Positions 409 to 26,450 are shown, numbered from the stretch's first letter. The stretch: 32,000 bases of DNA from Planctomycetales bacterium (GCA_022646745.1 CP060262.1:1980001-2012000), one strand, 5' to 3'. Notes: generated from the letters alone by a model not told the origin. Numbers and translations: made by a program.

Positions 409-927
409 TTATCCAGCGTCGCGGGAAACGTCGGAATTGCGGGCCAGCAGCTGCTCGAGGATTATCTCGGCGCGCTCAATCACCTCGCGGTTGCCGTCAT
501 AGCGCACCACTTCCTTGGCTGCATCAAAGCTGAACCAGTAGGCGCTGGCAATTCCCTCTTCGCGTGTGAAGCGGGTGACGGTGAATTCCCGCGTATGTGC
601 ATGCATCAGGAAGAAGTGCACGGTCTTTCGGTGCAGTTCATGGCGGGGCATCGGCGGGAAGGAATATTCGATCTTGCCGAGGTAGGCCAGCACGTCCAGT
701 TCGCTGACCGGGATGCCGGTTTCCTCGCTCACTTCACGGCGCGCGGCATCCTCGAAACTCTCGCCGGGATTCACGTGCCCCTTGGGCAGCAGCCACTGCG
801 GATGGCGGCCCTTGTCAACCTCGATCAGCACGAGGCGGGCCTGGCCGGAAACCTCGTCCAGCACCACCCCACCGCAGCATGTGTGATCCACGAATGACAG
901 TCCTGGATTGCTGCGGTTATTGCTCAT
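409..927 (-). CDS. NUDIX hydrolase
   Basis: Complete Nudix box GX5EX7REUXEEXGU is present as GHVNPGESFEDAARREVSEETGI. Confidence 0.88.
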   Translation of the reverse strand: MSNNRSNPGLSFVDHTCCGGVVLDEVSGQARLVLIEVDKGRHPQWLLPKGHVNPGESFEDAARREVSEETGIPVSELDVLAYLGKIEYSFPPMPRHELHRKTVHFFLMHAHTREFTVTRFTREEGIASAYWFSFDAAKEVVRYDGNREVIERAEIILEQLLARNSDVSRDAG

Positions 928-2483: not shown

Positions 2484-2560
2484 GTTGCCGCCTCGCCCAA
2501 GGGCTCGTCGGTCTGGCGCTGCGGCTGCGCATCCGCGCATCCGTGTCGCGCTGATGGTGA

Positions 2561-2661
2561 GGGAGGCCAGACCCATGGTCTGGCAGGATTGCAGGCCCAT
2601 GGCCTGCGGGATTGCCGGTGCATGGCACTGGCCTCCTGTCATTCCATGGGAATGACCTCCC
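2561..2661. repeat. tandem array of four 17-19 nt hairpins centred on CCATGG/CATG (family 2 palindromic element)
   Basis: ccagacc-cat-ggtctgg (2567-2583), gcaggcc-cat-ggcctgc (2591-2607), ccggtgc-atg-gcactgg (2615-2631, one G-T pair), gtcattcc-atg-ggaatgac (2638-2656). GGGAGG (2561-2566) is complementary to CCTCCT (2632-2637) and CCTCCC (2656-2661). Confidence 0.7.
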
Positions 2662-2687
2662 TTCTTCCCCTCGTTTATGCTTAATCC

Positions 2688-5600
2688 ATGGGAATGACCA
2701 AACGGATTCTCAGCATCGCAGCCCTTGCTTCAGCCACTATCATCGGCCTGATGGCAGCGGCGCAGGCCTCGATGTTCGACCTCGTCTCCGATGCGGACTA
2801 TTCGCAGTGGGGCATGCGCAACCGTCCATTTCCATTCCTGCCGGGGGAGGGCAAGTTTGCCGACTACGGTTGCTTCCCGCTTGGCAACGGCTACATCTTC
2901 GGTCACCTCGGAGTGGACGGTGACTTCTCGCTTATGCGCGGGCTGACCGGCCCCGGCTACCAGACCCGTGGTGACAACGGCGACTGGCAGGTCTGGCAGG
3001 AAGGCAACTGGCCGGACATCGCGCTGTCATTCAAGGCCACGGCCCCGAAGGGCAGCTTCAACCCGGTATTCCATCTCGGAGAGCAGTGGGGCGCGCAGTC
3101 CATCCAGCAGGTGCTGGGGGCGGCGATTGTCAGGGTCAGGCAGAGCGCTGATTTCGGCGAGCTGGACTGCATCCAGTACGCCGTATCCGGCATGCCGGTG
3201 CTGGTACGGGAGTACCGCTTCAGGCCGGTGGAGGGCCGGGCCGACCCGGACTGGCAGTACTGCCTGCAGGTCGGCACGGAGGCGAACGAAACGGAATACG
3301 ACGGCCTGGTCTTTCACCAGGGAGAGAACCGCCTGACGATCCAGTGCAGTGGATTCCTTGAAGTGGACGGCCTGCAGCAGTGCATCGCCGGTGAGATGCA
3401 GGAGGACGGCAGCTGGAGATGCACTGTGGCCTACATTGCCAGCAAGGCCGGTGAACCACGCACTGCGGTGGAGCTTGACAGTGCTGGGCTGGCCGACCTG
3501 GCAACGCGTACCCGTGAATGGTGGCGCGAGTTCAGTGCTGCCAACTACGGATACGAGGATGCGCTGGCGTGGCCCTGGAGCGACATGCCGCATTTCGGCA
3601 GTGAATGGATGCAGCCGCGCCTGTCACACATGATGCTGCAGCTCCCCGTGATCATCGAGACCCAGCGTGACCACTACAGCGGCTCTTCCTCTCCGATGGT
3701 CAGCTACCACGGTTGCTGGGTGCGCGACAACAACGGCATCATCCTGACGGACATCGTCAACAAGCGCTACGACAACGTGATGCGCCTGCTGCGCTACCAC
3801 CGCGCGGCCTGCGTGTCCTACGGCTCCTGCCCGATGCTGGTGCCGCTGGACCTCGACCTCTCCGGCCTCGATGGCTGGCAGCCCGGTGAGCCGGGCACGG
3901 CTGGCGACCTGTCGGGCATTGGCGCAACCGGCTTCGACTGGAGCGCTTTCGGCGTGGAGCATGCCGAGGTGCCGAGCCTGATCGTGCTGCAGCATTACCT
4001 GCTGTGGCGCGCGATGATGCAGGATGGCATGGTGGAGGAAGCGACGGAGTTCATGCAGGAAAGCTGGGGTTTTGTCACGCACAACCTAATGGCGATGGAC
4101 TACTCCACCGAGTACGGCGTGCGCTTCCACGGTGACGAGACCTACACCCAGGGTGCGCTGTACTCCACCTACGACCGCGTGGAAAGCGGGCAGATCGGCT
4201 GGCCCAACGGCTACATCCCGACCAACTTCTACAGCTTTGACAACACCATCCTGCATCGCGCGGCTGCTGCGGCAATCATCGAGATGTCCGGTTCCATAGG
4301 GCTGGACAGTGGTTTTGATGTGGCCCTGCGGATCCGTGATGAGCTGGATGATGTGGTAAATGACAACTACATCCTGGATGGGCGGATCGTGGCTGCCATC
4401 TCACCGAGCACCGGCCAGCCCTGGCTGCCGCCATTTTCCAACATCAACCTGCGGCCCTACTGGCTGGGGCTGGACTACGGCCTCGATGAAGAACTGCTGC
4501 GTGACAACTTCATCCGGGTCAGGAGGTACCTCAACTACATCAGGCCGGTTGACCGGGCGGATGGCAAGCACCTGCCTGACAGCACTCCCTGGAGTGGCTA
4601 CATGACGGGGCACAACATTGCCTATTTCATTTCAGGGAACTGCAGCGTCGCTGAAAATGTGTTCCTCGGGACTGAGAACCTCGGTTATGAGGTCGTGATC
4701 GGCACGGCCAGCCCGGAAGGTGCCTGGTGCGAAGTGCTCGGCCCGGACGGTGCGCCGGTTGACATCTACGGCCGCACCAACCGCATCCGGCCCTGGGAAA
4801 GTGGAGTCAACTACCAGGCAATTGTCCGCATGATGGAAGATGGGATTGACTATATTGCCGAGGAAAAGGTAAGGGAATGGGACAGATCCACAGAACCTCC
4901 CGTTGCCACTGCATCACACGACACGCAGATCCTCGCCCTGACGCGCGACAACCACTTCCGCGAACTCTACCCACTGGACAGCCGCATGGCCTGGGTGGAG
5001 CAGCAGCACATCACCGCCTGGGACATCGCCTTGCCGTTCTCTCCGGATGAGCTGGCGCGCGCGCTGATGTTCGAGGAAGGCGACATTGACTACAACATCC
5101 CCTTCCTGTTCATTGACCGCGACGTGAGAACTGGCCTCGACCGGCGCACCATGAAGGATGAGCACTTCTGGGCGGAGATGGACAAGGTGATCGCTGAATA
5201 CGAGGCTGCCGGTGGGATCGTCGTCACCGAGGATACGCTGCAGCTTTCGCTGGCAGACGATGAGGCGGTCGGCCTGAAGGTGCTGGTCGCGCTCTACCCG
5301 AATACATTTGCGCACCGCATGACGGATGGCGAGATCGCCAACTTCCGTGATGAAGTCGGCAGCTGGATGGACTGGTACCGCGAGATGGCCGGCGACCGGC
5401 TGCAGTTCGAGCTGGACTACCTCGTGATGCCGCATACGCTGTCGCCGGAGCAGTGCGGCCGCGAGAATGGCAACGTGTTCTGGCTCGGCAGCACGGATGT
5501 GGAGGCTGACCTCAGGGCCTACGGCGTGCCTGACAACCACTACGACCTCGTGGCTTGCTTCTGGGGCTGGGACCGTGATCGCCAGCAGATTGAGCTGGAT

Positions 5601-7526
5601 GGTGAACAGGCCCTGCAGGCCTACGGCGGGGCGGCCCAGGGCCCAGCGCCGGACATGGCCTTCATGGGCCAGGCCGGACGCACAGGCTATTACGGCAGCG
5701 CGATCCTGAACAGCCATCCTGACAACATCCACAAGGTGGCGATCCACGAACTGCTGCACAACATCGACGGCCTGTTCCGCACGGCCGGGATGCCGGGGGA
5801 TTTCCTCAATGCTGACGACATGGCGGCCAATATCGAACTGCTGCTCAGGGAACAGCCGGGCTGCTTCGAGGCCGTCGGCTTCACTGACGAGGCGATCCGT
5901 GGGCTTGCCGACAGGGAGATGCGCAAGGAGGCCGGCTTCCCATGGGAGGCGCAGCTCGTCTACTACGAATGGATGCTGAGGCGCACGCCGCGCGACAGTT
6001 ATGCGCGCCTGCTGCTGAACTACGGCGAGCGGGTGAAGCAGTCCGCGGAACCGGTGGATCTGAAGGCGCTGGGTGAGGACTTTGGCAACCGCTATGTGGC
6101 GGCTGTACTCGCTGACGACGACATCGACTGCCTGATCGGGCAGGACTTTGAAATCTACCTAGACATGGAACAGTCAGGTGTGCTGCCGCCGGGAGTGGGC
6201 ATTGAGCTTGTTGCCGAGTTTGCCGGCGAGCGGATGGCGACCCTGCCGGAGGGTGAGGGCTGGATGCTGCGCATCCCGCAGGACAGCATCGGCAATGGAG
6301 CGCTGGCGCTGCATTTCGATGTGCTGGACTACACCCTGCCACGAAACCGGTTGGACACCCAGCTTTGCTTCCCGGTGCGCACTGTGCAGTTGCACCTGCG
6401 ACCGATCTGGCATGCGGAACTGGACTGGGACGACGCGGAGAACAAGATGACAGTGGCCATCAGCGGGCCGGAAGGGACATACGACTGGAAGCTCAGCACG
6501 GCGCACCATCCCAGCCTGATCGAGGAGCGCCTGCATGAGGACGGCCTGCTCGCGGATTTTCAGTACGAAGCCGAGGGCAGCATTGCCAACGGGGGTGAGG
6601 CAGTGCTTGGTATGCATGCGGAGCAGTATGCCCGCCTGCGCAATGAGAGCTTCTCTCTCGATGTGACATTCACGGACGAATCCGGCAACAGCGGCAGCTT
6701 CAGCCACAGCTTCCCCGGCACACAGCGCCTGCGCGACAGGCTGAAGGGGATTGACCCGAAGGCCCTGCCGGACTATGTGATCAGGGCGACTTACTATGAT
6801 GAATCACTGGATGAAGAATACGCAACCGGGAAAATGCCTTTCAATCCGCAGGAGAACTCGATAAGCCCTAAAAATGGCAACGTATTCTCGGGTCAGGTAG
6901 AATCAGAAGTTGATGCAAAGCTGGATTTCACAGTTTACTATGATGAAGATACAGTTCACCTGTTTGTCATCCTTACCGACGATATGGCACCTGGCAACGG
7001 AATCTGGGATTCAGACAGGATAAACCTGTGCTTTGATACACTCGTTGACAGCGATGAAATGGACTATCCAAATGGTCCGGTAGGTCATACGGCTTGGCAG
7101 GCCGACGATTACTGGGTGTTCTTCTGCCCATTTGTTACGGATGGCCCAAGGGTAATGCGACTTGGTGGACTGAACCCCAGCGGCGTTGGAAATGGTTACT
7201 ACGGTCCAGTTGCAGATTGTGACTACTACGTAGGGATAATCAATGACTTGCGCAGCTCCGAAGCTGGAAGAGCAAACTCAGCTGATTCGAGGACTCAATT
7301 TGTCCATGAGTATGGTGTCACCTGGACCATCCCGCTTTCCGAGTTGCCATATCTCGATGCCACGCCCGGCAGCTTCTGCGGTTTCACGATCTTCTACTCC
7401 GACTATGACGAAGGCCTGTCCGAGATGATGTACTTCAACGACTGGGGTGGTGACAACGGCATTGACTGGCGCTTCTGGGATACCGGACTGCTGTACTTCG
7501 AACCTCCCGGGGAGCCGCAGGACTGA
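2688..7526 (+). CDS. secreted 1612-aa multidomain protein: signal peptide, six-hairpin (GH15-like) glycosidase-like region, HEXXH zincin-like region, C-terminal CBM9-like module
   Basis: N-terminal signal MGMTKRILSIAALASATIIGLMAAAQA. YHGCWVRDNNGII and PWESGVNY resemble (alpha/alpha)6 GH15-type barrels. HELLH sits at nt 5745-5759 with a Glu 26 residues after the second His. The C-terminal pattern (VHLFVILTDD ... CGFTIFYSDYDEG) resembles CBM9/DOMON-like modules. Domain calls are by eye only. Confidence 0.8.
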   Translation: MGMTKRILSIAALASATIIGLMAAAQASMFDLVSDADYSQWGMRNRPFPFLPGEGKFADYGCFPLGNGYIFGHLGVDGDFSLMRGLTGPGYQTRGDNGDWQVWQEGNWPDIALSFKATAPKGSFNPVFHLGEQWGAQSIQQVLGAAIVRVRQSADFGELDCIQYAVSGMPVLVREYRFRPVEGRADPDWQYCLQVGTEANETEYDGLVFHQGENRLTIQCSGFLEVDGLQQCIAGEMQEDGSWRCTVAYIASKAGEPRTAVELDSAGLADLATRTREWWREFSAANYGYEDALAWPWSDMPHFGSEWMQPRLSHMMLQLPVIIETQRDHYSGSSSPMVSYHGCWVRDNNGIILTDIVNKRYDNVMRLLRYHRAACVSYGSCPMLVPLDLDLSGLDGWQPGEPGTAGDLSGIGATGFDWSAFGVEHAEVPSLIVLQHYLLWRAMMQDGMVEEATEFMQESWGFVTHNLMAMDYSTEYGVRFHGDETYTQGALYSTYDRVESGQIGWPNGYIPTNFYSFDNTILHRAAAAAIIEMSGSIGLDSGFDVALRIRDELDDVVNDNYILDGRIVAAISPSTGQPWLPPFSNINLRPYWLGLDYGLDEELLRDNFIRVRRYLNYIRPVDRADGKHLPDSTPWSGYMTGHNIAYFISGNCSVAENVFLGTENLGYEVVIGTASPEGAWCEVLGPDGAPVDIYGRTNRIRPWESGVNYQAIVRMMEDGIDYIAEEKVREWDRSTEPPVATASHDTQILALTRDNHFRELYPLDSRMAWVEQQHITAWDIALPFSPDELARALMFEEGDIDYNIPFLFIDRDVRTGLDRRTMKDEHFWAEMDKVIAEYEAAGGIVVTEDTLQLSLADDEAVGLKVLVALYPNTFAHRMTDGEIANFRDEVGSWMDWYREMAGDRLQFELDYLVMPHTLSPEQCGRENGNVFWLGSTDVEADLRAYGVPDNHYDLVACFWGWDRDRQQIELDGEQALQAYGGAAQGPAPDMAFMGQAGRTGYYGSAILNSHPDNIHKVAIHELLHNIDGLFRTAGMPGDFLNADDMAANIELLLREQPGCFEAVGFTDEAIRGLADREMRKEAGFPWEAQLVYYEWMLRRTPRDSYARLLLNYGERVKQSAEPVDLKALGEDFGNRYVAAVLADDDIDCLIGQDFEIYLDMEQSGVLPPGVGIELVAEFAGERMATLPEGEGWMLRIPQDSIGNGALALHFDVLDYTLPRNRLDTQLCFPVRTVQLHLRPIWHAELDWDDAENKMTVAISGPEGTYDWKLSTAHHPSLIEERLHEDGLLADFQYEAEGSIANGGEAVLGMHAEQYARLRNESFSLDVTFTDESGNSGSFSHSFPGTQRLRDRLKGIDPKALPDYVIRATYYDESLDEEYATGKMPFNPQENSISPKNGNVFSGQVESEVDAKLDFTVYYDEDTVHLFVILTDDMAPGNGIWDSDRINLCFDTLVDSDEMDYPNGPVGHTAWQADDYWVFFCPFVTDGPRVMRLGGLNPSGVGNGYYGPVADCDYYVGIINDLRSSEAGRANSADSRTQFVHEYGVTWTIPLSELPYLDATPGSFCGFTIFYSDYDEGLSEMMYFNDWGGDNGIDWRFWDTGLLYFEPPGEPQD

Positions 7527-8710
7527 TGATCGGCTGGCAGCGCATGAGCGATTTCTTCGTGAAGCACTTCGGTGATGAACCGGAGATCGCCTGCTGTGCG
7601 CCGGGCCGCATCAACCTGATCGGTGAACACATTGACTACGCCGGCGGGCAGGTGCTGCCGCTGTCCATCTCGCTCGGTGTCAGCGTGGCCGTGCGTGCCA
7701 CCCGCCAGGGCCTGCTGCGCGTGGTGTCCGACGAGTACCCTGGACAGGGGATCGTCACCCTTGATGGCAGCACTGCGCAGGACGGGCCGGCCGGCTACGT
7801 GCTGGAGCTGGCGCGCATGACGGAAACCACATCCGCCCAGATTGCCATTCTTTCAGACCTGCCGGTCGGGCAGGGCCTGTCCAGTTCGGCGGCGATTGGC
7901 ATCGCCGTGCAATGTGCGCTGCTGGCGCTCAAGCCTGACGCGGTGATGCCCAGTGCACGGGCCGTCTGCCGTGCGGCCCAGCGGGCGGAGCACCTGGCGC
8001 TCGGCACAAGCTGCGGCATCATGGACCAGTACGCTTCGATGTTCGGCAGCCCCGGCAATGCGATCCTGATCGATACCTGGCAGGAGACGCATCAGGCCGT
8101 GCCGCTGGACAGCCTGGCCGGCTGCAGCATCATCCTCGTTGACAGCGGACAGCCGCGGGAGCTCAGCGCTTCGCAGTACAACCAGCGCCATGCGGAGATG
8201 ACCGGTGCGCTGAATGAGGCAAAACGCTTATGTGGCGGCTTCAACTGCTTCAGGGAGAAGGCACATGACGAGCTGTTGACAATCGCTGAAGCGATGCCAG
8301 AGCCGGCAAACCGGCGGATGCGGCACCTGCTGATGGAGCAGCGCCGCGTCGGACGCTTCCAGGATGGCCTGCGCGAACGTGACCTGAAGATGCTTGGCAG
8401 GATCCTGTATGCAGGACATTGCAGCCTGCGCGATGACGCAGAGGTCAGCACACCGCAAATTGACACATTGGTGGAGATGCTCTGCTCGACCCCTGACTGC
8501 CTCGGCGCCCGCCTGATGGGCGGCGGCTTCGGTGGCAGCGTGCTGGCGCTGTTTGAAAGCCCGCCGGACGAGTTCCTCATGGCCGGCCTGCTGCGCGACT
8601 ATGCCGGCGAGACGACGCTTGGCGGACGCTGGCTGCAGGTCGAGCCGGGACCGGGTGCCTGGCTGCAGAGCGGACGGGGCAGCTGGCGCAGCGTGGCGGA
8701 GTGGCTGTGA
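7526..8710 (+). CDS. galK: galactokinase-family GHMP sugar-1-kinase
   Basis: Galactokinase signature GRINLIGEHIDY and GHMP motif PVGQGLSSSAA. The ATG shares one base with the upstream TGA (TGATG at 7524-7528); ATG 7544 is an alternative start. Confidence 0.85.
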   Translation: MIGWQRMSDFFVKHFGDEPEIACCAPGRINLIGEHIDYAGGQVLPLSISLGVSVAVRATRQGLLRVVSDEYPGQGIVTLDGSTAQDGPAGYVLELARMTETTSAQIAILSDLPVGQGLSSSAAIGIAVQCALLALKPDAVMPSARAVCRAAQRAEHLALGTSCGIMDQYASMFGSPGNAILIDTWQETHQAVPLDSLAGCSIILVDSGQPRELSASQYNQRHAEMTGALNEAKRLCGGFNCFREKAHDELLTIAEAMPEPANRRMRHLLMEQRRVGRFQDGLRERDLKMLGRILYAGHCSLRDDAEVSTPQIDTLVEMLCSTPDCLGARLMGGGFGGSVLALFESPPDEFLMAGLLRDYAGETTLGGRWLQVEPGPGAWLQSGRGSWRSVAEWL

Positions 8711-9732
8711 TGAAGGGACTGATCCTCGCCGCCGGTCGCGGTAGCCGCCTGGCCCCGCTGACTGACACGGTTTCCAAGCCGCTGTTGCCACTGGCTAACC
8801 GGCCACTGATTGACTACCCGCTGCAGCAGCTGCTGGATGCCGGCATCACGGAGATCTGCATCGTTGCCAACCCGGACAACCGTAACGAACTGGAGGCTGC
8901 ACTGGATGGCACTGCGGCCCGGATGCACTACATCATCCAGCCGGAACCGCTCGGGCTGGCACATGCCGTCGGCTGCGCCCGTGAGTTCTGCGGCGGCAGT
9001 GAGTTCGTGCTGCTGTTCGCTGACAATGTGTTCCTGCAGCCGCTGGAGACCGGGCTCGCCGCCTGGCGTGAACTGCAGCCGAACTGCATCATCCACACCA
9101 TCGAACTGGATGACCCGCGCGCCTTCGGCGTGGCCGTGCTGGATGGGCAGCGCGTGGTGGACCTCGAGGAGAAGCCGGCGGTCCCACGCAGCAACCACGG
9201 CGTGATCGGCATCGACATCTTCACGCCGGAGATCTTTGAGGCGATTGACAGCATCCAGCCCAGCGCGCGTGGTGAGTATGAAATCACCGACGCAATGATG
9301 GAGCTGGTGCGCCGTGGCCGGCATGTACACGCCGTGCCCCTGATCGGACCCTGGTATGACACCGGTACCTTCGCCGACCTGATCCGCGCTCACCACTGCG
9401 CGATGGACACCTGGCAGCAGTTCGAGCTGGCGGACGGCATCGAGCAGCGCCAGAGCCATACCGTGTTCGACGTGGATGTACAGGCCGGCACCCGGCTGGA
9501 TGGCGCACGCCTGATCGGGCCGGTGCGCGTGGCGTCCGGTTGTGAGATCGTTGACAGCGTTCTCGAGGAGTACGTCTCCGTCGGGCGCGACTGCCGGATC
9601 CAGAGCTGCCATTTCACCAACGTCCAGCTGATGCCCGGCAGCCGGGTGCGGAACCTGGTCGCGCGCGACTGCATCATTGCGCCCGGCCTGCAGGTGACGG
9701 CAGAGGGCGAGAAGATTCCGCTGGACGGCTGA
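8710..9732 (+). CDS. sugar-1-phosphate nucleotidyltransferase (RmlA/GlmU-like fold with C-terminal left-handed beta-helix)
   Basis: MKGLILAAGRGSRLAPLT (GxGxRL motif), PLGLAHAV and EKP motifs, and hexapeptide-like repeats at the C-terminus. The ATG overlaps the galK TGA (TGATG at 8708-8712). The track start at 8701 (GTG) is judged less likely. Confidence 0.85.
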   Translation: MKGLILAAGRGSRLAPLTDTVSKPLLPLANRPLIDYPLQQLLDAGITEICIVANPDNRNELEAALDGTAARMHYIIQPEPLGLAHAVGCAREFCGGSEFVLLFADNVFLQPLETGLAAWRELQPNCIIHTIELDDPRAFGVAVLDGQRVVDLEEKPAVPRSNHGVIGIDIFTPEIFEAIDSIQPSARGEYEITDAMMELVRRGRHVHAVPLIGPWYDTGTFADLIRAHHCAMDTWQQFELADGIEQRQSHTVFDVDVQAGTRLDGARLIGPVRVASGCEIVDSVLEEYVSVGRDCRIQSCHFTNVQLMPGSRVRNLVARDCIIAPGLQVTAEGEKIPLDG

Positions 9733-9758
9733 GCCAGCGTGTTTGCTATGCTTTAGGC

Positions 9759-10826
9759 ATGCAACAGCGCGAGGCCACAAGCGTCCTGCCCGTCCACTGC
9801 TGGAACACCGCGGTGTCCTGCCTGGCCTGCCTCGCTGACAGCCTCAGCCTCGACCTGCCGTTCGAGCATGTCGCCGGCCTGAGCGGCGAGGCCTTCCGCC
9901 TGCCGCTGTTTGCCAACACCACCCCCGGCAGCTGGCAGCACAGCGTGAGCTGGCCACACGCCGCGCTCAACTGGATGGAGTCACTCGGCATCGATGCCGA
10001 GATATGCTGGACTGACAGCGCCGCCGCTTCCTCTGACAACTGGCACTCGAGGCAGCGCACGCTGATCAGCGAAACGCTTGGCAGCGGACTGCCGGTGATG
10101 TACTGGGACAACCTCGCCTGGTCAGTGATCCTTGCCGAGGATGCCGACAGCTACCTTGTGAGCGGCATCCCGGCGCTGCACATCCCGGACGGGCTGCCAC
10201 ATGCCGAAGCCCTGCGCCGGCGCAGCTTCGGGGCGGAGGGCCACGGCCCGGATGGTGCGTTCCGCATCCCGCGCGAGGAGCTGCGTCCTCTATTCGAAGG
10301 TGACCAGCTGTTCATCCATCCGCGCGGGCTGGCTGCATCCGATCCGGAGTACCGCCTGGCAATGGCGCTGGCGCGTGCCGCCAATGAACTGGGCGGTGTG
10401 GTGAACTGGCCGCGGCTGGTTGATTCATCCGGCCACAGGCTTGGCCCGCTGTTCGGTACGGCGGCGATGGAGCGCCTGGCGATGGAACTGAAGGGTGGTG
10501 AGCCGGGTCTGGATGGATTGATCAGCAGCATGCAGACCCTGCTGGAAATGCGGCGCGCTGCCCTGCGCTGGCTGTCGGACCTGGCGGCCGAGACGGAGGG
10601 TGAGCTGCAGCCGCGGCTTAAGCAGGCCGCGGAATTCATGCGCCGGATCGTAGCCGGGCTGAGGCCGGTCGCCGCTGATTTCGCGCTGCCGGCGGACCCG
10701 CGCACACAGCTCCGCAAGGAGCTGCTGGAGCGCAATGCGAATGCGCTGTATGAGGTGCGGCGCACCGAGGAGACACTGACCCGCCTGCTGCGCGGGATTT
10801 CCGGGGACTTCGGCGTTTTCAGCTAG
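9759..10826 (+). CDS. hypothetical protein (possibly BtrH-N / papain-like fold with a helical C-terminal domain; weak)
   Basis: 355-aa ORF with host-like codon usage, 26 nt after the nucleotidyltransferase. An N-terminal HCW motif and the overall length recall BtrH_N+DUF4872 proteins, but this is memory-based and unverified. Confidence 0.6.
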   Translation: MQQREATSVLPVHCWNTAVSCLACLADSLSLDLPFEHVAGLSGEAFRLPLFANTTPGSWQHSVSWPHAALNWMESLGIDAEICWTDSAAASSDNWHSRQRTLISETLGSGLPVMYWDNLAWSVILAEDADSYLVSGIPALHIPDGLPHAEALRRRSFGAEGHGPDGAFRIPREELRPLFEGDQLFIHPRGLAASDPEYRLAMALARAANELGGVVNWPRLVDSSGHRLGPLFGTAAMERLAMELKGGEPGLDGLISSMQTLLEMRRAALRWLSDLAAETEGELQPRLKQAAEFMRRIVAGLRPVAADFALPADPRTQLRKELLERNANALYEVRRTEETLTRLLRGISGDFGVFS

Positions 10827-10887: not shown

Positions 10888-11376
10888 ATGCAAGGTAATT
10901 TCTTACGCAGAACGCAGATATTCATCCTGCTGGCCTTCATGGCCGGCATGTTCGCCGGTTCAGCCATGCAGCCCACGCGGGCGATGGCGGGCTGGGACCT
11001 CGGCGACCTGATCAAGGACGGCGCCAAGGGAGCGATCGTCGGCGGTGGTATCGCCTACCTGGTGAAGCAGAACGCCAAGGACATCGACAAGACGATCAAC
11101 AAGCTCTACAAGGACAATGACTTCCCGATCGGGGCCGCGACGAGGGTCGTGCCGATCGTCGATGCGCTGGGCACCAAGCACGTCGGTGCCGCCCAGATCG
11201 TTGGGCCGCAGGCTGCTGTGGATGAGGTATCCAGCGTTGTGCTGCTGGAGACAAGCTTCCTCGACAAGGTCTTCCGCATCAACGGTTACGTGCCGGTGAA
11301 GGGCAACGTGGACGACCTGAAGCGTGTTGCCGGAGTCGGCGTGAGCGCGGTGATTGATGTTAAGGTGGCGCCGTAG
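10888..11376 (+). CDS. small secreted hypothetical protein
   Basis: SD AAGGAG lies 7 nt upstream. Signal peptide is MQGNFLRRTQIFILLAFMAGMFAGSAMQPTRAMA. No family recognised. Confidence 0.65.
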   Translation: MQGNFLRRTQIFILLAFMAGMFAGSAMQPTRAMAGWDLGDLIKDGAKGAIVGGGIAYLVKQNAKDIDKTINKLYKDNDFPIGAATRVVPIVDALGTKHVGAAQIVGPQAAVDEVSSVVLLETSFLDKVFRINGYVPVKGNVDDLKRVAGVGVSAVIDVKVAP

Positions 11377-11523: not shown

Positions 11524-11559
11524 GGCGGGTGGTCATTGGCCATCCGCCGTTGCTTTTTT
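11524..11559 (+). terminator. intrinsic terminator about 150 nt downstream of the 10888-11376 gene
   Basis: 9-bp stem ggcgggtgg/ccatccgcc (one G-U pair), 7-nt loop, then gttgcTTTTTT. Confidence 0.5.
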
Positions 11560-11716: not shown

Positions 11717-12334
11717 ATGAAGTTCGATGGACATCGGGGATTCTACAAGTCACAGCGCTTACCACATTTTGATTCGGCAGGTTTGATTCAATTTGTCACA
11801 ATTGCCCTGGCTGATGCTGCTCCCAAAACAAGGAAACCGCTAACTGCAGGATCAAAGCAGAATAGTGACCAGCAATTCATGGAGATGGATTCAATCCTGG
11901 ATACTTCAAGGGGAGTCTGTCTGTTTAGAATGCCACGGCTTGCCTGGATTGCCGGTGACCTTGCCAGGCAGGGAGAATACCTCGGTTGTATTCCCTTGGC
12001 GTGGGTAATTATGCCCAATCATGCGCATCTGCTGTTTGGTCAGACAAAAGGCACCATGCTCAGTGAGGTCGTCAGGAAATTCAAGGGCAGGAGTGCTTAC
12101 CTTATCAATGCTGAGACAGGAAAGTCCGGGAAAGTCTGGCAAAAAGGATACTTTGACCGTGCCATGCGTGACCTGAACCACTTCGCAGCTACATTGGAAT
12201 ATATCCATGAGAATCCAGTGAAGGCAGGGCTTGCATCCCGGGCTGAAGACTGGAAGCAAAGCAGTATTCATGATACTTCGTTGGAATTGGCAATCAGCGT
12301 GATTGAGCAAAAGGGGTTGCTGTCGGTATCTTGA
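11717..12334 (+). CDS. REP-associated tyrosine transposase (RAYT, IS200/IS605-like Y1 HUH family)
   Basis: HUH motif in VIMPNHAHLLF, then KVWQKGYFDRAMRD, and a catalytic Tyr context in YIHENPVKAGL. Confidence 0.85.
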   Translation: MKFDGHRGFYKSQRLPHFDSAGLIQFVTIALADAAPKTRKPLTAGSKQNSDQQFMEMDSILDTSRGVCLFRMPRLAWIAGDLARQGEYLGCIPLAWVIMPNHAHLLFGQTKGTMLSEVVRKFKGRSAYLINAETGKSGKVWQKGYFDRAMRDLNHFAATLEYIHENPVKAGLASRAEDWKQSSIHDTSLELAISVIEQKGLLSVS

Positions 12335-20173: not shown

Positions 20174-20788
20174 TCAGTCCGGCAGCTGGCCATAGCTCGG
20201 CAGCTTGAAGATCTCACCGAGACTGGCATAGCGCCCGCCACCCATGCGCGCCAGCGGCTTAAGCCGGTGCGGGTCGATCGCGCCGCGCGCATCAATCAGG
20301 GTGTCGCGGATATGGAACATCAGCACGTCGGCGAGGATCATCGCCCCGCCGCTTTCCTCGAATTCGATCACCTGGCGCAGGCGGCATTCCATGCTGACCG
20401 GTGCTTCCTTCACGAACGGTGCACTGACCACGGATCCGAAGGCCGGCGTGAGCTTCGTGGCCGCGAATTCATCCTCGCCATAGGGCAGTTCCGCGCTGCT
20501 TTCATGCAGCTGGTCGCCGTGCTGCAGGTCGCAGATGCTGATCGTGAGTTCTCCTGTCCGGCGGATGTTGAGCAGCGTGTCCTTGCCTGGCTTGCTTTCC
20601 GTTGGTGAAAAGCCCAGCCCGACCACCGGCGGGGTGGCGCTGAAGGCGTTGAAGAAGCTGAACGGGGCGAGGTTATGCCCGCCCGCCTCATTGTTCGTAC
20701 CCACCCAGGCGATCGGGCGGGGCACGATCGCGCTGATCATCAGGAAGTAGCGCCGCCCGGGGGAAAGGGTCTGTGGGTCGATGTGCAT
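20174..20788 (-). CDS. flavin reductase-like FMN-binding protein
   Basis: VPRPIAWVGTNNEAGGHNLAPFSFFN is typical of the flavin reductase domain. ATG at 20788 has GGAGG 5 nt upstream. The track ORF extension to 21016 overlaps moxR and is rejected. Confidence 0.82.
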   Translation of the reverse strand: MHIDPQTLSPGRRYFLMISAIVPRPIAWVGTNNEAGGHNLAPFSFFNAFSATPPVVGLGFSPTESKPGKDTLLNIRRTGELTISICDLQHGDQLHESSAELPYGEDEFAATKLTPAFGSVVSAPFVKEAPVSMECRLRQVIEFEESGGAMILADVLMFHIRDTLIDARGAIDPHRLKPLARMGGGRYASLGEIFKLPSYGQLPD

Positions 20789-20799
20789 TGCAACCTCCG

Positions 20800-20808
20800 T
20801 GTTAAAAT
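20800..20808 (+). promoter_or_regulatory. candidate extended -10 element (TGtTAAAAT) for moxR
   Basis: Sequence pattern 22 nt upstream of the moxR ATG, in a 42-nt divergent intergenic region. Confidence 0.3.
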
Positions 20809-20830
20809 AGCGGGAACTCAGTATTGTCCC

Positions 20831-21841
20831 ATGAGTACAGGCTCCATGAGCAATCCGGAACCGGTGACGAACAGCCCCTCCGTCTCCATCAGCCCCGCTG
20901 AACTGGACGGCGCGCTGGCGCTTGTCAACCGGGTGATCCGCAACATCGAGCTGGCCATCTTCGGCAAGCGAGACGTGATCGAGCTGGTGCTGATCGGCAT
21001 GTTCTCCGATGGCCATGTGCTGCTGGAGGATGTGCCCGGCGTGGGCAAGACCATCCTCGCCCGTGCACTGGCGCGCAGTGTGAAGGCCGACTTCAAGCGC
21101 ATCCAGTTCACCCCGGACCTGCTGCCGGCGGACGTCACCGGAGCCAATACCTACGACCAGAAGGAAAACAAATTCTCCTTCCGCCCGGGACCGATCTTCG
21201 CCAACATCCTGCTGGCGGATGAGATCAACCGTACCAGCCCGCGCACCCAGTCATCGCTCTTGGAGGCGATGGAGGAGCGCCAGGTCACCGTGGACGGCGT
21301 GACCTACCCGGTGCCACGGCCCTTCTTCGTGATCGCCACCCAGAACCCGGTGGAGCAGCAGGGCACCTACGACCTGCCGGAGGCGCAGCTGGACCGCTTC
21401 ATCCTGCGCGTCAAGATCGGCTATCCGAGCATCGACCACGAGGCGGAGATCCTCGAGGCCCAGCGCCGCACGCATCCGATCGAGGAGCTGGAGCCGATCT
21501 GCGGGCCGGACGAGATCATGTCCATCCAGCAGCTCGTGCGCCGCATCGGGGTCAAGCCGAGCCTCAGGCGCTACGTCGCCGAGATCAGCGCGGCCAGCCG
21601 CGAGCACCCGGATGTGCTGGTCGGCGTCAGCGTGCGCGGCAGCCAGCGCCTGATGACGGCGGCGCAGGCCTACGCGATGCTCAACCACCGCGACTACATC
21701 ATCCCGGACGACATCCAGAGCGTGGCGCCGCACTGCCTGGCACACCGCATCCTGCTGCGTCCCGAGGCCAAGCTGGCCGGCGTGGACGAGAAGAGCGTGC
21801 TTAAGGCCATCCTGCGCCAGATCAGCGTCCCGGCGCAGTAG
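20831..21841 (+). CDS. moxR: MoxR-family AAA+ ATPase
   Basis: Walker A DVPGVGKT, Walker B LLADEINR, and SSLLEAMEERQVTVDG. The start is set at ATG 20831 (MSTGSMSN); the longer track ORF from 20675 overlaps the divergent gene. Confidence 0.92.
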   Translation: MSTGSMSNPEPVTNSPSVSISPAELDGALALVNRVIRNIELAIFGKRDVIELVLIGMFSDGHVLLEDVPGVGKTILARALARSVKADFKRIQFTPDLLPADVTGANTYDQKENKFSFRPGPIFANILLADEINRTSPRTQSSLLEAMEERQVTVDGVTYPVPRPFFVIATQNPVEQQGTYDLPEAQLDRFILRVKIGYPSIDHEAEILEAQRRTHPIEELEPICGPDEIMSIQQLVRRIGVKPSLRRYVAEISAASREHPDVLVGVSVRGSQRLMTAAQAYAMLNHRDYIIPDDIQSVAPHCLAHRILLRPEAKLAGVDEKSVLKAILRQISVPAQ

Positions 21842-22179: not shown

Positions 22180-24819
22180 ATGAAAACTCGCCGGGCCACA
22201 TCGCTCGCATTGGTCCCGTTCATGCTCGGGGTGATCCTGCTGGCAGGCTGCAAGGGCGGCACCAGTCCTGAAGCGCTTTCTCCTGATTCCAGTAACACCG
22301 CCAACCAGTTCCCCGAGTTGCATGATGCCCTGGCTGCCGAGTTCGCCCGCCTGGGCATTGACCCTGACAAGGTGCCCGCCAAGGTGGCCAGCGGCGACTC
22401 CAACGCCGTGTTTGATCTGGCCCTCACGGTTGACGACCCCGATGGCGAAGGTCCCACACCTGCCAGTGGAGTGACGCTCAAGTGGACTGAGCGCATGCTG
22501 GGGGACTACGATCAGAACGGCCTGGTGAACGCTTCCGATATCACACCTCTCGGGCAGAATTTCCAGCAGGCAGTTACTTACGACGATCCCTTCAGTCACA
22601 ACGGTCTGGAATACTGGCCCGCAGGCGACCCGGACGACGGCGGCAGTGGCGCTGCAAACTGGCGGCGCGCTCGCGTGGATGGCAACGATGACGGGCTTGT
22701 CGGCCTGTCCGATATCACCACCATCGCCCAGCACTGGAATGAACAGCTTTCCGGCTACGTGGTGCAGATGGCGGTCAACCGGGGCGATGGCGAACTGAAC
22801 TGGACTGATGTGGACAGTGGCAACGGCATAGCTCCCAGCATTGCCCGTCCCAGCGTCAACAATGCAGCGGCCGTGCGCTACGAACTGTATATCCCGTTGG
22901 GCGAAGCGCAGTTTGCTCATCATTTCCGTGTGCTGCCATACGACGCTGTGACAGACGAGCGCGGTGAATTGTCAAACCGGGCGGACTACTATCCGGTGAG
23001 CCAGGGCGATACCACCCCGCCTTACTGGCTGGATACCGTAGGCGTACAGAAACTGGTTCCCTCCAGCGAGCAGATCAAAGTGGAGTTTGGCAACGCAGAG
23101 GACAGCCAGTCCCCGCCCGTCAGCTACCGCATCTACTGGGAGGAAAGCTCAGAGGGCAGCCTCGATCCATTCGATTATGTCAGCGCCCAGTCAGCGGATG
23201 TGATGGATTCACCCTACACGATCACTGGCCTGACGAATGAGCTGTACTACCGCGTGGCGGTGCGCGCGTTGGACAGCGCGGAAACACAGAATGAAGAAAA
23301 GAATCAGGTGCTGCTGGGTGCAATGGTTGAACCGCGTGATGTGTATCCACCGGAGTGGACTGCCCGTGTTGGTTTGCAGGAAGTGCTCTACGGTAACGGC
23401 CTGGCTGTCATGATCTGGGATCCGGCAGTTGACAGCCATACTGATGAACATGGCACCTGGGAAAGTGGCCCGGTGATTTACAGGGTTTACTATGGCGAGG
23501 GCTTAACTCCTGACTTCAACAAAGCGACTACTCTGGACTTCCCTGATAAGGGTCTTGACTATTACATAGTCACGATCCCTGATCTTGACACTTCGATTCA
23601 TCGCTGGTTCAGCGTGCGCGCGTTGGACCAGGCAACAATACCAAATGAGGATGACAACGATGCCGTGATCGTGCGGCGTGGCTCAGTTGTCACCAACCAT
23701 GAGAAACCCGGACCTGGTCCGGGAATTCCTCCGACGGCGCAAAAGGATGCGAGTAGTAAAGCAGCTGAGCCGGATGGTTTCGTGCAGAATGCCAGCCGCA
23801 CGGAGACCTACTATTACGACTGCTATGTGGATCCGCCTGGAGAGGACATGGTTCCACGCGAGAATTGGATCAGCCTCTGGAAGATTGAGGGGAATAGTAT
23901 CACTCATTCGCGTGATCTGATGATCGGTGAATACACCGGGGAGCTGGTGGTGCAGGCGCTTTGTGTTGACAACGTTGGAAAGCTGAAAGTGTTCTCAACT
24001 TTGAACCCCTCCTTGTCAGGAATGACCACAGTTGAGTTTCGGGAAGGGGAAGGTGAAATTTTCAACAAAGAGATGCCAAAATGCTCAATAACACATGCTG
24101 GCTGTACATATGATCCAAGCGACATTTGCTGGTCTGGGATCGCAAAATGGGAAAATGATGATGTGTTGAACCCTAGATTTACTTATTACCTTGACATACC
24201 TCCATTGAATTTGCTGAGTTCATACTGGGATACCGATGATCACGATGGATTCATTTCAAACCCCAGTCTGGACAGCGCATTCCTTAGTGATTCCAGTATT
24301 TTCACGCTGATTAGACCAACAGATCCAAACGATGGAAATTACCTGTACTCACTAGAAGTGACTAGTTCTGAAGTTGTTGTCAAGCCGTTTAACATGTTTC
24401 CAGAAACGAGCGGTGTTAGTGTTACTGGCTGGGATTCAATTAACCCGTTGTTTGTGGAGTATCACAAGAATGGCAATGAACATGTTACTTCAATGTACCA
24501 AGGAGAATGGGAAGGACACTATGAGGAAGTAAGACCGTTGTCAGAGCAAGGAAGATTGTATTACACTGTCCGTTCACAATTTGAAGTAATCATGTCTGCT
24601 AGTGGTTCCGCATTACAATTCTACGATTTTGCTAATCCTGTTAAATTTATTCGAAGAACATACTTAGTACTAGAAGATACTAGTTATGCAATTCCTTCGG
24701 GGCTGGATTTAGGTTTGAACTTCAATTTGGGAATCAACATCCGTACGGATAGTTCTGAATACTGTGGGTTCAGCAATACAATTGGTGGGGACTTGATTTC
24801 AACTGTACAACTCCAGTAA
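22180..24819 (+). CDS. lipoprotein with a dockerin-type repeat pair, FN3-like domains and a low-GC C-terminal region
   Basis: Lipobox in MKTRRATSLALVPFMLGVILLAGCK. Dockerin/EF-hand-like repeats are GDYDQNGLVNASDITPLGQNF (22501-22563) and DGNDDGLVGLSDITTIAQHW (22678-22740). FN3-like segments include SYRIYWEE...YTITGLTNELYYRVAVRALD. Confidence 0.85.
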   Translation: MKTRRATSLALVPFMLGVILLAGCKGGTSPEALSPDSSNTANQFPELHDALAAEFARLGIDPDKVPAKVASGDSNAVFDLALTVDDPDGEGPTPASGVTLKWTERMLGDYDQNGLVNASDITPLGQNFQQAVTYDDPFSHNGLEYWPAGDPDDGGSGAANWRRARVDGNDDGLVGLSDITTIAQHWNEQLSGYVVQMAVNRGDGELNWTDVDSGNGIAPSIARPSVNNAAAVRYELYIPLGEAQFAHHFRVLPYDAVTDERGELSNRADYYPVSQGDTTPPYWLDTVGVQKLVPSSEQIKVEFGNAEDSQSPPVSYRIYWEESSEGSLDPFDYVSAQSADVMDSPYTITGLTNELYYRVAVRALDSAETQNEEKNQVLLGAMVEPRDVYPPEWTARVGLQEVLYGNGLAVMIWDPAVDSHTDEHGTWESGPVIYRVYYGEGLTPDFNKATTLDFPDKGLDYYIVTIPDLDTSIHRWFSVRALDQATIPNEDDNDAVIVRRGSVVTNHEKPGPGPGIPPTAQKDASSKAAEPDGFVQNASRTETYYYDCYVDPPGEDMVPRENWISLWKIEGNSITHSRDLMIGEYTGELVVQALCVDNVGKLKVFSTLNPSLSGMTTVEFREGEGEIFNKEMPKCSITHAGCTYDPSDICWSGIAKWENDDVLNPRFTYYLDIPPLNLLSSYWDTDDHDGFISNPSLDSAFLSDSSIFTLIRPTDPNDGNYLYSLEVTSSEVVVKPFNMFPETSGVSVTGWDSINPLFVEYHKNGNEHVTSMYQGEWEGHYEEVRPLSEQGRLYYTVRSQFEVIMSASGSALQFYDFANPVKFIRRTYLVLEDTSYAIPSGLDLGLNFNLGINIRTDSSEYCGFSNTIGGDLISTVQLQ

Positions 24820-24852
24820 CTTTCGACTAATTTTTTCTAAAAGGAGAATGAC

Positions 24853-25140
24853 ATGGGAATCACTAAGAAAGTCGCGATTGCGATGATTTTGTCGATAATG
24901 CTTGCTTCATGTGGAGGACAGAAAGACAACAGTCTCGATAAGCAGACTTCGATTGCTGAGCAGCTTCGCAGCACAATCACAGTCCAGTGTCGCGATGGCT
25001 TTGATGGCATTCAGGGTGCCAGTGATCTCAGGGTGGAAATCTCTGAAGCTGAGGGCAACGCAGTGCTACGGCCGCCCTTTCCTTTTCTCCTTTGTTACAC
25101 TCCGCTACCCCCGACAACCCAGCTCCCACATCCTCAGTGA
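24853..25140 (+). CDS. small lipoprotein (hypothetical; 3' end possibly degenerate)
   Basis: SD AAGGAG lies 7 nt upstream. Lipobox in MGITKKVAIAMILSIMLASCGG. Low GC, like the 3' end of the upstream gene. The last about 25 codons run into a C-rich tract, giving a Pro-rich tail. Confidence 0.55.
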   Translation: MGITKKVAIAMILSIMLASCGGQKDNSLDKQTSIAEQLRSTITVQCRDGFDGIQGASDLRVEISEAEGNAVLRPPFPFLLCYTPLPPTTQLPHPQ

Positions 25141-25202: not shown

Positions 25203-26450
25203 TTGCTCTCATCCAAGTTCACAGTGCATTCGGTGGTGTTCCTGTTCCTCACCCTGTTCACGGTCGTCGTGGCCTGGGTTTTCAGGAACCCGCTGCTCGT
25301 GTACACCGCCGTGTTCCTCGTGGTCACGAACTTCGTGCTCTACATCTGGGCGCAGTACTCCGTGAACGGGATGAAGGTCGAGCGCCGCCACCCGCCGCAT
25401 GTGATGGCCGGGCGTGAGGCCGAGGTCGAGGTGCTCTTGGAGAACACCCGCACCACCGCGCGCTACGGCACGATGGGTTTCGACATCCACGCCAAGCTGG
25501 TGCCCGGCAAGGAGTACACCCCGGTGGCCTTCCTGTCGGCCCCGCCCGGTGAGAAGGTGCTCTCCAGCTACCGCGTCACCCCGGCGCGGCGCGGGGTGTA
25601 CGAGCTCGGCCCGTTCTTCCTCTACGGCGGCGACCCCTTCGGCTTCTACAAGTGCTGGCGCAAGCTGCGCGTGCCGACGGAGCTCGTGGTGCTGCCGGAC
25701 CCGGTGCCCTTCCGCTTCCGCCAGCCACCCTCGGCCTCGATGCTTGCCCAGGACGAGCTGGAGACGCAGCCGCTGGCCGGCGAGAGCAGCGAGTTCCTCG
25801 GGGTGCGCGAGTATGTCTCCAGCGACCCGATGAAGCGCGTGCACTGGATGAGCAGTGCGCGCCACGGCAAGCTGATCACGAAGCAGCATGAGATGAACGT
25901 TGCCAGTTCGATCTCGGTGCTGCTGATCTCCGACGAGGCGATGTGGCAGGGCATCGGGCACAACTGCCCGGTCGAGTTCGCGATCCGGATGGTTGCCAGC
26001 CTGGCCTATGCCAGCTGCTTCAACCGCTTCAAGCTGCACTACCTCGCGCTGATGGGTGACAACTACGAGAGCCAGGCCGGCAACGGCCAGGGCTTCTTCC
26101 GCGAGCTGTCCATCCGGCTGGCGCGGCTCAGCGGGCGCGGCGCGATCAACTGGGACCACAGCGGCAAGGTGGTGCTTGGCTACCTGCCGGCGGGCTCGAG
26201 CCTCGTGATCCTCACGATGGACCTCGGCCAGAGCAGCCGCCAGCGCTTCCGCAACATGGCGGCGCGCTACCGCAGCGTGGTGGTCGTCACCTTCAACGCC
26301 GAGAGCTTCCGCAAGATGCAGCCCGCTGAGCGGCCCGGCCCGCGCCTGAGCTTCGGCGAGGGCTACCTGATCCTCGAGGTGTTCTACGGCGACGACCTCG
26401 GTGCCACGCTCGAGCAGATCAACGAGAAGTCGATGGTGGTGGTGCGCTGA
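25203..26450 (+). CDS. DUF58 domain protein (MoxR-associated, vWA-like)
   Basis: Two N-terminal TM helices and the DUF58 hallmark REYVSSDPMKRVHWMSSARHGKLITKQ. The start is uncertain (TTG 25203 or GTG 25222) and no SD is visible. Confidence 0.85.
   Translation: MLSSKFTVHSVVFLFLTLFTVVVAWVFRNPLLVYTAVFLVVTNFVLYIWAQYSVNGMKVERRHPPHVMAGREAEVEVLLENTRTTARYGTMGFDIHAKLVPGKEYTPVAFLSAPPGEKVLSSYRVTPARRGVYELGPFFLYGGDPFGFYKCWRKLRVPTELVVLPDPVPFRFRQPPSASMLAQDELETQPLAGESSEFLGVREYVSSDPMKRVHWMSSARHGKLITKQHEMNVASSISVLLISDEAMWQGIGHNCPVEFAIRMVASLAYASCFNRFKLHYLALMGDNYESQAGNGQGFFRELSIRLARLSGRGAINWDHSGKVVLGYLPAGSSLVILTMDLGQSSRQRFRNMAARYRSVVVVTFNAESFRKMQPAERPGPRLSFGEGYLILEVFYGDDLGATLEQINEKSMVVVR

Follow-up and report, generated by a model that had tools for sequence, protein, structure and literature searches.

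An overlapped operon for a putative exported giant protein, a GalK-type kinase and an RmlA-like transferase in candidate phylum 4484-113: a possible route for galactose without GalT

Gene content of the trio

The stretch of DNA considered here, a window of 32,000 nucleotides (nt) from a metagenome-assembled genome (MAG) of an uncultured wastewater bacterium, titled "Planctomycetales bacterium" (GCA_022646745.1, CP060262.1:1980001-2012000), carries on its plus strand three directly adjoining genes between positions 2688 and 9732. The first, identified by a scan of open reading frames (ORFs), encodes a putative exported protein of 1612 amino acids (aa), hereafter the giant (2688-7526); the second encodes an anomeric kinase of the GalK family (7526-8710, 394 aa) and the third a sugar-1-phosphate nucleotidyltransferase of the long RmlA type, hereafter the transferase (8710-9732; 340 aa when read from its ATG at 8710, an in-frame GTG being present at 8701). 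An earlier, sequence-only reading had proposed that one-base TGA/ATG overlaps join the three genes, and this was borne out: stop codon and following ATG share a single base in the TGATG at 7524-7528 (giant/kinase) and in that at 8708-8712 (kinase/transferase), and GGAG-type Shine-Dalgarno-like motifs lie 9-11 nt 5' of both internal ATGs. The trio is real and consists of three overlapped ORFs. GenBank holds the exact proteins as MCB1221372-4 / UNM09963-5 on the 4.11-Mb contig of the MAG, annotated "hypothetical protein" for the giant (MCB1221372.1 / UNM09963.1) and one further member of the trio and "NTP transferase domain-containing protein" for the remaining one. The G+C content of the window is ~60%, and neither tRNA genes nor Rfam families were found in it.

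Of the description of the first product as a secreted, glycosidase- and zincin-like giant, export and a glycosidase-type fold are supported by predictions, and for the zincin-like part an HExxH motif in a predicted helix was seen. Residues 1-27 (2688-2768, plus strand) read as a Sec-type signal peptide (...AAQA/S), and hydrophobic N-termini or signal peptides occur in nearly all homologues. In the AlphaFold2 model of residues 1-860 (pLDDT 84.6, pTM 0.88), the catalytic-type region (2790-4847, plus strand) is composed of a beta-sandwich (residues ~38-253) followed by an (alpha/alpha)6 six-hairpin domain (~265-720). Foldseek matched this model with a probability of 1.00 (E = 1e-12 to 1e-9) to several glycoside hydrolase (GH) families, namely cellobiose phosphorylase (GH94), a GH116 beta-glucosidase, GH15 glucoamylase and dextran dextrinase, GH63 YgjK, GH65 and GH95, although these matches are generic (~10% identity, TM 0.4-0.5). 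Seven carboxylates (D347, E427, D483, E484, D518, E682 and E704) are invariant across 32 homologues, including those only 22-25% identical, which fits an active enzyme. Sequence and profile searches with the giant gave no Pfam, NCBIfam or PDB match, the six-hairpin GH models of Pfam gave only sub-threshold matches among the homologues tested, and an hhalign comparison with the MGH1-like hydrolases that neighbour the gene in relatives gave a non-significant probability of 0.5%. We therefore place the catalytic-type domain in an unclassified family of six-hairpin proteins, which numbers a few hundred clusters at 50% identity; an exhaustive profile search with it recovered 261 representative clusters when limited to E <= 1e-30, and 1304 at the looser E <= 1e-3. 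The same 0.5% profile comparison rules out the giant being simply a third paralogue of the MGH1-like hydrolases.

The remainder of the giant was modelled at lower confidence (residues 840-1612, pLDDT 76.6) as an HExxH-bearing domain, immunoglobulin (Ig)-like sandwiches and a C-terminal module resembling carbohydrate-binding module family 9 (CBM9). The zincin-like domain forms an optional middle region (5241-6398, plus strand; residues ~852-1237) which is missing from the homologues in L010, L013, L017 and L020 (L-numbers denote the loci of relatives). Its HELLH motif (residues 1020-1024, nt 5745-5759) falls inside a predicted helix (residues 181-185 and 176-195, respectively, of the modelled fragment), and the HExxH together with a following Asp is invariant wherever the domain is present; no match was found for the domain profile in the PDB or for the region in Pfam. 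The CBM9-like domain (6855-7523, plus strand), which is preceded by Ig-like beta-sandwich spacers, was matched by Foldseek to 1i82 (E = 3.4e-8, TMt 0.67). The Pfam model CBM9_1 (PF06452) matches 11 of the 32 homologues, down to E = 2.3e-7, with the giant of the window sub-threshold at 18.3 vs 23.4 bits.

For the middle gene, the galactokinase signature (GRINLIGEHIDY) and GHMP motif recognised earlier were confirmed by matches to PF10509 GalKase_gal_bdg (69.3 bits, cutoff 23.1), PF00288 GHMP_kinases_N (47.6) and PF08544 GHMP_kinases_C (46.7). Its best PDB match is human GALK1 (178 bits), followed by bacterial and archaeal GalKs, with GalNAc (N-acetylgalactosamine) kinase at 80 bits. The kinase lies below the equivalog cutoffs of NCBIfam, scoring 200.4 vs 226.65 for TIGR00131 and 187-228 vs 385-509 for the other galactokinase models, and it belongs to a subfamily of ~40 clusters (865 to 247 bits) above a plateau of generic GalKs at ~215 bits and lower. 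A HMMER alignment to GALK1 and an alignment of 120 sequences were used to compare individual residues. The residues which we take to be the galactose contacts of human GALK1, R37, E43, H44, D46, G183, D186 and Y236, have identical equivalents in the window kinase and in 41/41 subfamily members, while subfamily-specific substitutions occur near the signature and in the core (T45I, N48A, F177A and V227Q, GALK1 numbering). As the seven contacts are invariant, D-galactose is the most likely substrate judging from the sequence. The list of candidate sugars left open earlier (galactose, GalNAc, galacturonic acid (GalA), arabinose or another) thus keeps galactose and loses its breadth. A fully canonical galactose pocket is also half of what would have spoken for an ordinary galactokinase served by galT and galE; neither of those genes was seen in the loci listed.

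The third gene had been read as an RmlA/GlmU-like nucleotidyltransferase with a beta-helix tail. This assignment agrees with a PF00483 NTP_transferase match of 161 bits and with end-to-end alignment to TIGR01208 rmlA_long, its best model, the tail being of the left-handed beta-helix kind and its GlmU-type hexapeptide match sub-threshold. The TIGR01208 score is 264.9 against a cutoff of 320.25, that for TIGR01207 (short RmlA) is 154.2 against 360.65, and the MurU model matches weakly (76 bits); the best PDB relatives are RmlA enzymes. The transferase falls in a subfamily of ~62 clusters (43-78% identity) which stands apart from generic long RmlAs, the Thermus enzymes for example. Residues are given here in E. 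coli RmlA numbering, from an alignment of 119 sequences comprising 63 subfamily members and 56 generic enzymes. The G-x-G-[ST]-R-L loop and the E162-K163-P motif are kept in the transferase, and Q83, N112, G147, E162, K163, T201 and W224 throughout the subfamily. Three positions differ: L109 is F in 63/63 members and in 0/56 generic enzymes (L in 55/56), G110 is C or A in 62/63 (G in 55/56 generic enzymes), and Y177 is D in 60/63 and in 0/56 (Y in 56/56), the window enzyme having F103, A104 and D169 at these sites. It is known that the sugar-1-phosphate tolerance of RmlA is altered by L89T, E162D, Y177F, T201A and W224H, and that Q83 sets the purine/pyrimidine bias of NTP use (review PMC9415975). 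With Q83 kept and pocket residues changed, the subfamily appears to be specific for pyrimidines (UTP or dTTP) and to have a re-shaped sugar pocket. A firm grouping with the thymidylyltransferases of rhamnose synthesis, which would have argued against a salvage role, was not obtained, given the sub-cutoff TIGR01208 score, the changed pocket and the lack of rmlBCD-type genes in the loci listed.

Conservation, leader and flanks of the operon

A search with the giant returned 33 matches among 5.8 billion clusters, of which the best 22 (E <= 1e-159) constitute the family proper and the remainder are distant six-hairpin relatives. All occurrences of the family in the genome collection come from MAGs whose titles read "bacterium" or "Planctomycetales bacterium", the 4484_113 MAG that gave the phylum its name among them. 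For the GTDB phylum 4484-113, 12 genomes are described, 1.54-4.11 Mb in size and originating from bioreactors and sludge (PMC11382960), and we infer that the window belongs to this candidate phylum.

The arrangement of each locus was obtained by mapping the window proteins onto all loci and from tables of called genes. In the window and in L013, L014 and L015 the order is citrate synthase, giant, kinase, transferase and then two further genes, p355 and p162, described below. Other, more distant relatives precede the giant with genes for two hydrolases, GHa and GHb, and mostly for a binding protein: L008/L009/L016 have GHa, GHb, binding protein, giant, fatty-acid desaturase, kinase and transferase; L010, L011, L012/L018 and L023 have GHa, GHb, binding protein, giant and kinase with no adjacent transferase; and L020 has GHa, GHb, giant, kinase and transferase. 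L019 and L026 carry the trio (giant, kinase, transferase), and L007 the giant alone with no kinase nearby. A kinase gene thus follows the giant in 12 of the 13 distinct loci with downstream sequence (the window, L013, L014, L015, L008/9/16, L010, L011, L012/18, L019, L020, L023 and L026), although the giants are 35-70% identical and the flanks different. This linkage is far beyond chance, and since the flanks differ completely between clades, shared recent ancestry alone does not account for the adjacency, which selection maintains. In 8/12 of these loci the kinase gene is followed by that of the transferase; the invariant core is therefore giant plus kinase. Of the three-gene order proposed earlier, what stands is its retention down to ~35-40% identity with overlapped junctions, whereas the adjacency of the transferase is limited to those eight loci.

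Gene junctions in the relatives are mostly 4-nt overlaps. Overlapped kinase-transferase pairs were found in the window, L008, L013, L026 and a stand-alone contig of 105 kb on which the pair occurs without a giant, and adjacent pairs in L014, L015, L019 and L020. The equal sizes of contigs with kinase and with transferase matches suggest ~10 further co-located pairs, and no fused form was seen among the kinase and transferase matches.

Both GHa (~870 aa, MGH1-like/GH63, with a weak PDB match to YgjK) and GHb (~640-800 aa, MGH1-like/trehalase, weakly matching a GH142-type module) lack a signal peptide, and the SBP_bac_1 binding protein has a lipobox or lipoprotein signal. This layout of the relatives, with its extracellular enzyme, binding protein of an ATP-binding cassette importer, cytoplasmic hydrolases and sugar kinase, is that of a catabolic oligosaccharide-utilisation locus, and the wider ancestral context of the operon is a sugar-utilisation locus in which the giant and kinase are joined by a lipoprotein binding protein and a pair of cytoplasmic six-hairpin hydrolases. 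Further genes lie close by in two relatives: in L011 (11260-15603, GCA_900175145.1) trehalose-synthesis genes for a TreT-like glycosyltransferase, a DUF5752 protein, trehalose phosphatase and an OtsA-type GT20 enzyme stand on the opposite strand right after giant-kinase, and in L026 a ROK-family kinase is encoded three genes downstream of the transferase.

Genes of the galT, galE and galM families were absent among the window ORFs scanned (the main ORFs from 1 to 12.4 kb and, beyond, most ORFs of at least 150 aa), in line with the earlier observation for the window, and the called-gene lists of the relatives' loci likewise hold no GalT, GalE or GalM. No rmlBCD-type dehydratase, epimerase or reductase was found in the scanned window ORFs or, in the listed loci, among the Pfam-annotated genes within ~10 kb, L014-L020 and L023 being mapped with selected queries only and unscreened for these families. 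The absence of GalT is therefore a local one, of the window and the loci, and its absence from the whole genome is something that we can only infer.

Regarding the limits of the operon, terminator-like hairpins with T-runs lie on the plus strand 3' of the citrate synthase gene (2456-2479), forming the upstream boundary of the unit, and at 11524-11548, the probable 3' end of transcription. Between 2480 and 11376 no strong terminator-type site was found on this strand, only short weak-stem matches inside the giant. From the two terminator-like sites it is likely that the transcription unit also takes in p355 (9759-10826, plus strand), a co-oriented gene 26 nt 3' of the transferase for a 355-aa protein of unknown function which is kept only in the clade of the window (L013-L015), and p162 (10888-11376, plus strand), which encodes a clade-specific protein of 162 aa with an N-terminal hydrophobic segment (81-94% conserved). 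As both are clade-specific and neither has a family or PDB match, they are not counted as core parts. In L014/L015 p162 is 93-94% identical, compared with 69-78% for the giant, kinase and transferase; a protein of ~120 aa cut by the window start (1-348), with no family match, is 98-99% identical.

Between the citrate synthase terminator and the start of the giant lies a leader (2555-2687, plus strand) with an array of hairpins (2555-2700) built of ~23-24-nt units with CATGG loops and GGATTGC linkers, for which a strongly structured RNA is predicted (-76.6 kcal/mol, z = -4.78). The array is conserved and expanded in L013-L015, standing 5' of the giant in L013 and L014 and growing from ~4 units in the window to ~10 in L015 (9687-9939), and the last ~80 nt of the leader are near-identical across species whose giants are only 70% identical. 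An operator array and a structured leader are both conceivable roles for it. Two copies of a 15-nt direct repeat, TCCATGGGAATGACC, lie within 2643-2699; the second holds the start codon of the giant and the first opens an in-frame mini-ORF of 12 codons, MGMTSLLPLVYA* (2646-2684), which ends 3 nt before the ATG of the giant and is conserved in L014 and L015. Just past the operon terminator, at 11717-12334, is a gene for a REP (repetitive extragenic palindrome)-associated tyrosine transposase (RAYT; NF047646, 91.7 bits) with an IS200-like Y1 domain. The idea that the hairpins are REP elements served by this RAYT is unsupported, the unit motif being found nowhere else in the window.

Upstream, the citrate synthase (1139-2428) belongs to the 'eukaryotic-type' subfamily (PRK09569, 553 bits; TIGR01793, 507 bits, under the cutoff), and a divergently oriented NUDIX hydrolase gene (409-927, minus strand) is syntenic together with it and the operon in the window clade (L013-L015, L017); the plus-strand ORF at 373-897 is a shadow of the NUDIX gene. 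Long antisense ORFs, such as those of 393 aa opposite the transferase (8599-9780, minus strand) and of 281 aa opposite the giant, are typical artefacts of high G+C and not genes. Further downstream, a cluster of the MoxR/DUF58/transglutaminase type comprises a MoxR-type AAA ATPase (20675-21841), a weak DUF58 match (25203-26450) and a TgpA-like transglutaminase (26450-29032), whose stop is overlapped by 4 nt by the gene for a YdjC-like protein (29029-29793). The G+C content drops to 0.415 at 24001-25000, vs ~0.6 elsewhere, at the 3' end of, and just past, an 879-aa ORF without a Pfam match (22180-24819).

Proposed galactose activation and its alternatives

In our view the trio is best explained as part of a conserved carbohydrate-harvest operon of candidate phylum 4484-113, in which galactose would be converted to galactose-1-phosphate (Gal-1-P) and then to UDP- or dTDP-galactose without GalT, a reading to which we give a probability of roughly 0.55. 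The giant would be exported by its Sec signal peptide, and its beta-sandwich/(alpha/alpha)6 domain, a putative hydrolase aided by the CBM9-like module, may attack an extracellular galactose-containing glycan and presumably yield galactose, which would enter the cell free or as an oligosaccharide. In those relatives which encode them, uptake of the oligosaccharide would fall to the lipoprotein binding protein and its cleavage to the two GH63/trehalase-like hydrolases of the cytoplasm. From its family and contact residues, the translationally coupled kinase of GalK type is predicted to phosphorylate galactose at C1, and the coupled RmlA-like transferase, to judge by its residues, would combine alpha-Gal-1-P with UTP or dTTP to give a nucleoside diphosphate (NDP)-galactose, in the place of GalT. 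This product could then either be epimerised for catabolism or be used directly in glycan synthesis. The sequence-only reading had spoken of a harvest-to-NDP-sugar salvage module; the gene order, the overlaps, the altered transferase and the lack of a local galT agree with it, whereas the conserved core is limited to giant and kinase and the activities themselves are presumptive.

Several observations mean that this should be considered with caution. The fold of the giant is common to enzymes for many sugars and to phosphorylases. Four lineages (L010, L011, L012 and L023) have no adjacent transferase, in the L010 genome the transferase gene lies elsewhere on the same contig, and in L007 the giant homologue has no kinase nearby. 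P0026, a distant six-hairpin homologue from a MAG of the true Planctomycetes, lacks galactose genes in its vicinity, and the kinase link is thus a trait of the giant family proper alone. Since a single phylum accounts for all members of the kinase and transferase 'subfamilies', their distinctive residues could in part reflect lineage drift. A GalT could also be encoded elsewhere in the 4.1-Mb genome. A bolder version, that the whole phylum uses galactose without GalT via a Gal-1-P-specific RmlA-derived pyrophosphorylase (Y177D/L109F) and that the giant founds a new GH family releasing galactose from environmental or sludge glycans, making this a bacterial operon-encoded 'harvest-to-NDP-galactose' pathway, is tentative and to our minds doubtful.

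The main rival is a classical Leloir pathway, in which an ordinary GalK would be served by a GalT encoded elsewhere and the transferase would be a glucose-1-phosphate (Glc-1-P) uridylyl- or thymidylyltransferase, giving either UDP-glucose, the co-substrate of GalT, or dTDP-glucose for unrelated glycans. The fully canonical galactose residues of the kinase would suit it, as would a transferase which is not adjacent in every locus and which, among named enzymes, is closest to Glc-1-P thymidylyltransferases (265 bits for TIGR01208; ~40-45% identity to Thermus enzymes). However, the transferase is under the equivalog cutoff, the changes L109F, G110C/A and Y177D are subfamily-wide and absent from the 56 generic enzymes, overlapped kinase-transferase junctions are kept in many lineages, and galT and rmlBCD were seen in no locus listed. 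With the sugar pocket substituted and the overlap with galK conserved, this explanation is weakened, and we regard it as unlikely.

Rather less probable is that the giant frees no galactose at all, being instead an enzyme for another sugar, a transglycosylase or remodeller of envelope or exopolysaccharide, or a protease or adhesin acting through its HExxH and Ig/CBM domains, with the kinase linked to it by recycling of the cell's own glycan or by co-regulation. The generic fold matches, which span many GH families and phosphorylases, the failure of family assignment in sequence and profile searches and the invariance of HExxH where the middle domain is present are all compatible with this, and CBM9 is classically a glucan/xylan binder. 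On the other side, several homologues that keep the kinase have no HExxH region, which is thus not the conserved partner; the six-hairpin domain is invariant with conserved carboxylates, and in relatives the locus also encodes a binding protein and cytoplasmic hydrolases of the sort found in catabolic loci. That the pair activates another galactose-configured sugar, for example GalNAc, D-fucose, L-arabinose or GalA, is improbable, for although the four kinase substitutions, the score below TIGR00131 and the weak match between an arabinofuranosidase module of GH142 type and one of the cytoplasmic hydrolases in the wider locus lean that way, all seven galactose contacts are invariant, the E43/H44 pair included, the GALK1 match is far stronger than that to GalNAc kinase, and the GEHIDY signature is, we presume, of the galactose type, unlike that of plant arabinokinase.

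Should the galactose reading be correct, the operon would provide a natural bacterial case of GalT-independent galactose activation, by GalK and an RmlA-derived enzyme with a re-shaped pocket. The transferase would be useful in chemo-enzymatic NDP-sugar synthesis, where RmlA variants are now engineered by hand. A first function would be given to an unannotated exported six-hairpin family which has no Pfam model and no solved structure, and a first physiological handle would be gained on an uncultured phylum from activated sludge and saline sediments.

Relation to known systems

Literature searches found no description of this module, nor of a natural bacterial operon of galK with an rmlA-like gene. 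The arrangement resembles the Leloir operon (galK-galT-galE-galM) in having a GalK-family kinase with canonical galactose residues and, as first committed step, the formation of Gal-1-P. However, galK is followed here by a pyrophosphorylase-type enzyme of PF00483 with no HIT-family GalT, GalE or GalM nearby, and the kinase is translationally coupled to a putative exported enzyme.

In plants and in Leishmania and other trypanosomatids, the Isselbacher or UDP-sugar pyrophosphorylase (USP) salvage route combines GalK with USP (PMC6329318, PMC4722067). The logic of an anomeric kinase followed by an NTP-dependent pyrophosphorylase, giving NDP-galactose without GalT, is shared, but USP belongs to the UDPGP family and not to RmlA/PF00483, and the eukaryotic genes form no operon and have no dedicated extracellular enzyme. 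In Pseudomonas, AmgK and MurU recycle N-acetylmuramic acid (MurNAc) by means of an anomeric kinase and an RmlA-fold uridylyltransferase, skipping de novo synthesis. This is likewise bacterial salvage by an anomeric kinase and an RmlA-fold transferase, and the window transferase matches MurU weakly; however, AmgK is a phosphotransferase-fold kinase rather than a GHMP one, and its sugar is MurNAc. Fkp of Bacteroides is an L-fucokinase/GDP-fucose pyrophosphorylase. Zebrafish has a fused glucuronokinase/pyrophosphorylase (PMC3938481). Both pair a GHMP kinase with a nucleotidyltransferase for sugar salvage, yet as single fused polypeptides for other sugars and nucleotides, whereas two overlapped genes are found here.

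With the long form of RmlA (TIGR01208, including the Thermus, archaeal and ST0452-like Glc-1-P thymidylyltransferases) the transferase has in common its fold, its length class, a beta-helix tail and Gln83, together with most of the residues for catalysis and for sugar-phosphate binding; it differs in its sub-cutoff score, in L109F, G110C/A and Y177D across its subfamily, and in being linked to galK and not to rmlBCD. The modelled N-terminal beta-sandwich and (alpha/alpha)6 barrel liken the giant to six-hairpin glycoside hydrolases and phosphorylases (GH15, GH63, GH65, GH94, GH95 and GH116), to none of which it has a significant sequence or profile match. In overall design, that is extracellular release, uptake by means of a binding protein and an anomeric kinase, the locus is comparable to the galacto-N-biose/lacto-N-biose pathway of bifidobacteria, which consists of an extracellular glycosidase, a binding protein, the anomeric kinase NahK, a phosphorylase and a GalT-type transferase; the enzyme families are different, and the phosphorylase and GalT-type transferase are particular to the bifidobacterial pathway.

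The logic of anomeric kinase plus pyrophosphorylase is already known from USP/Isselbacher salvage, AmgK-MurU, Fkp and the zebrafish fusion. What appears to be new is that a bacterial operon pairs a canonical GalK with an enzyme derived from RmlA, that this pair is tightly coupled to a putative exported enzyme of an unclassified six-hairpin family, and that such a GalK/RmlA-type operon is conserved across a candidate phylum.

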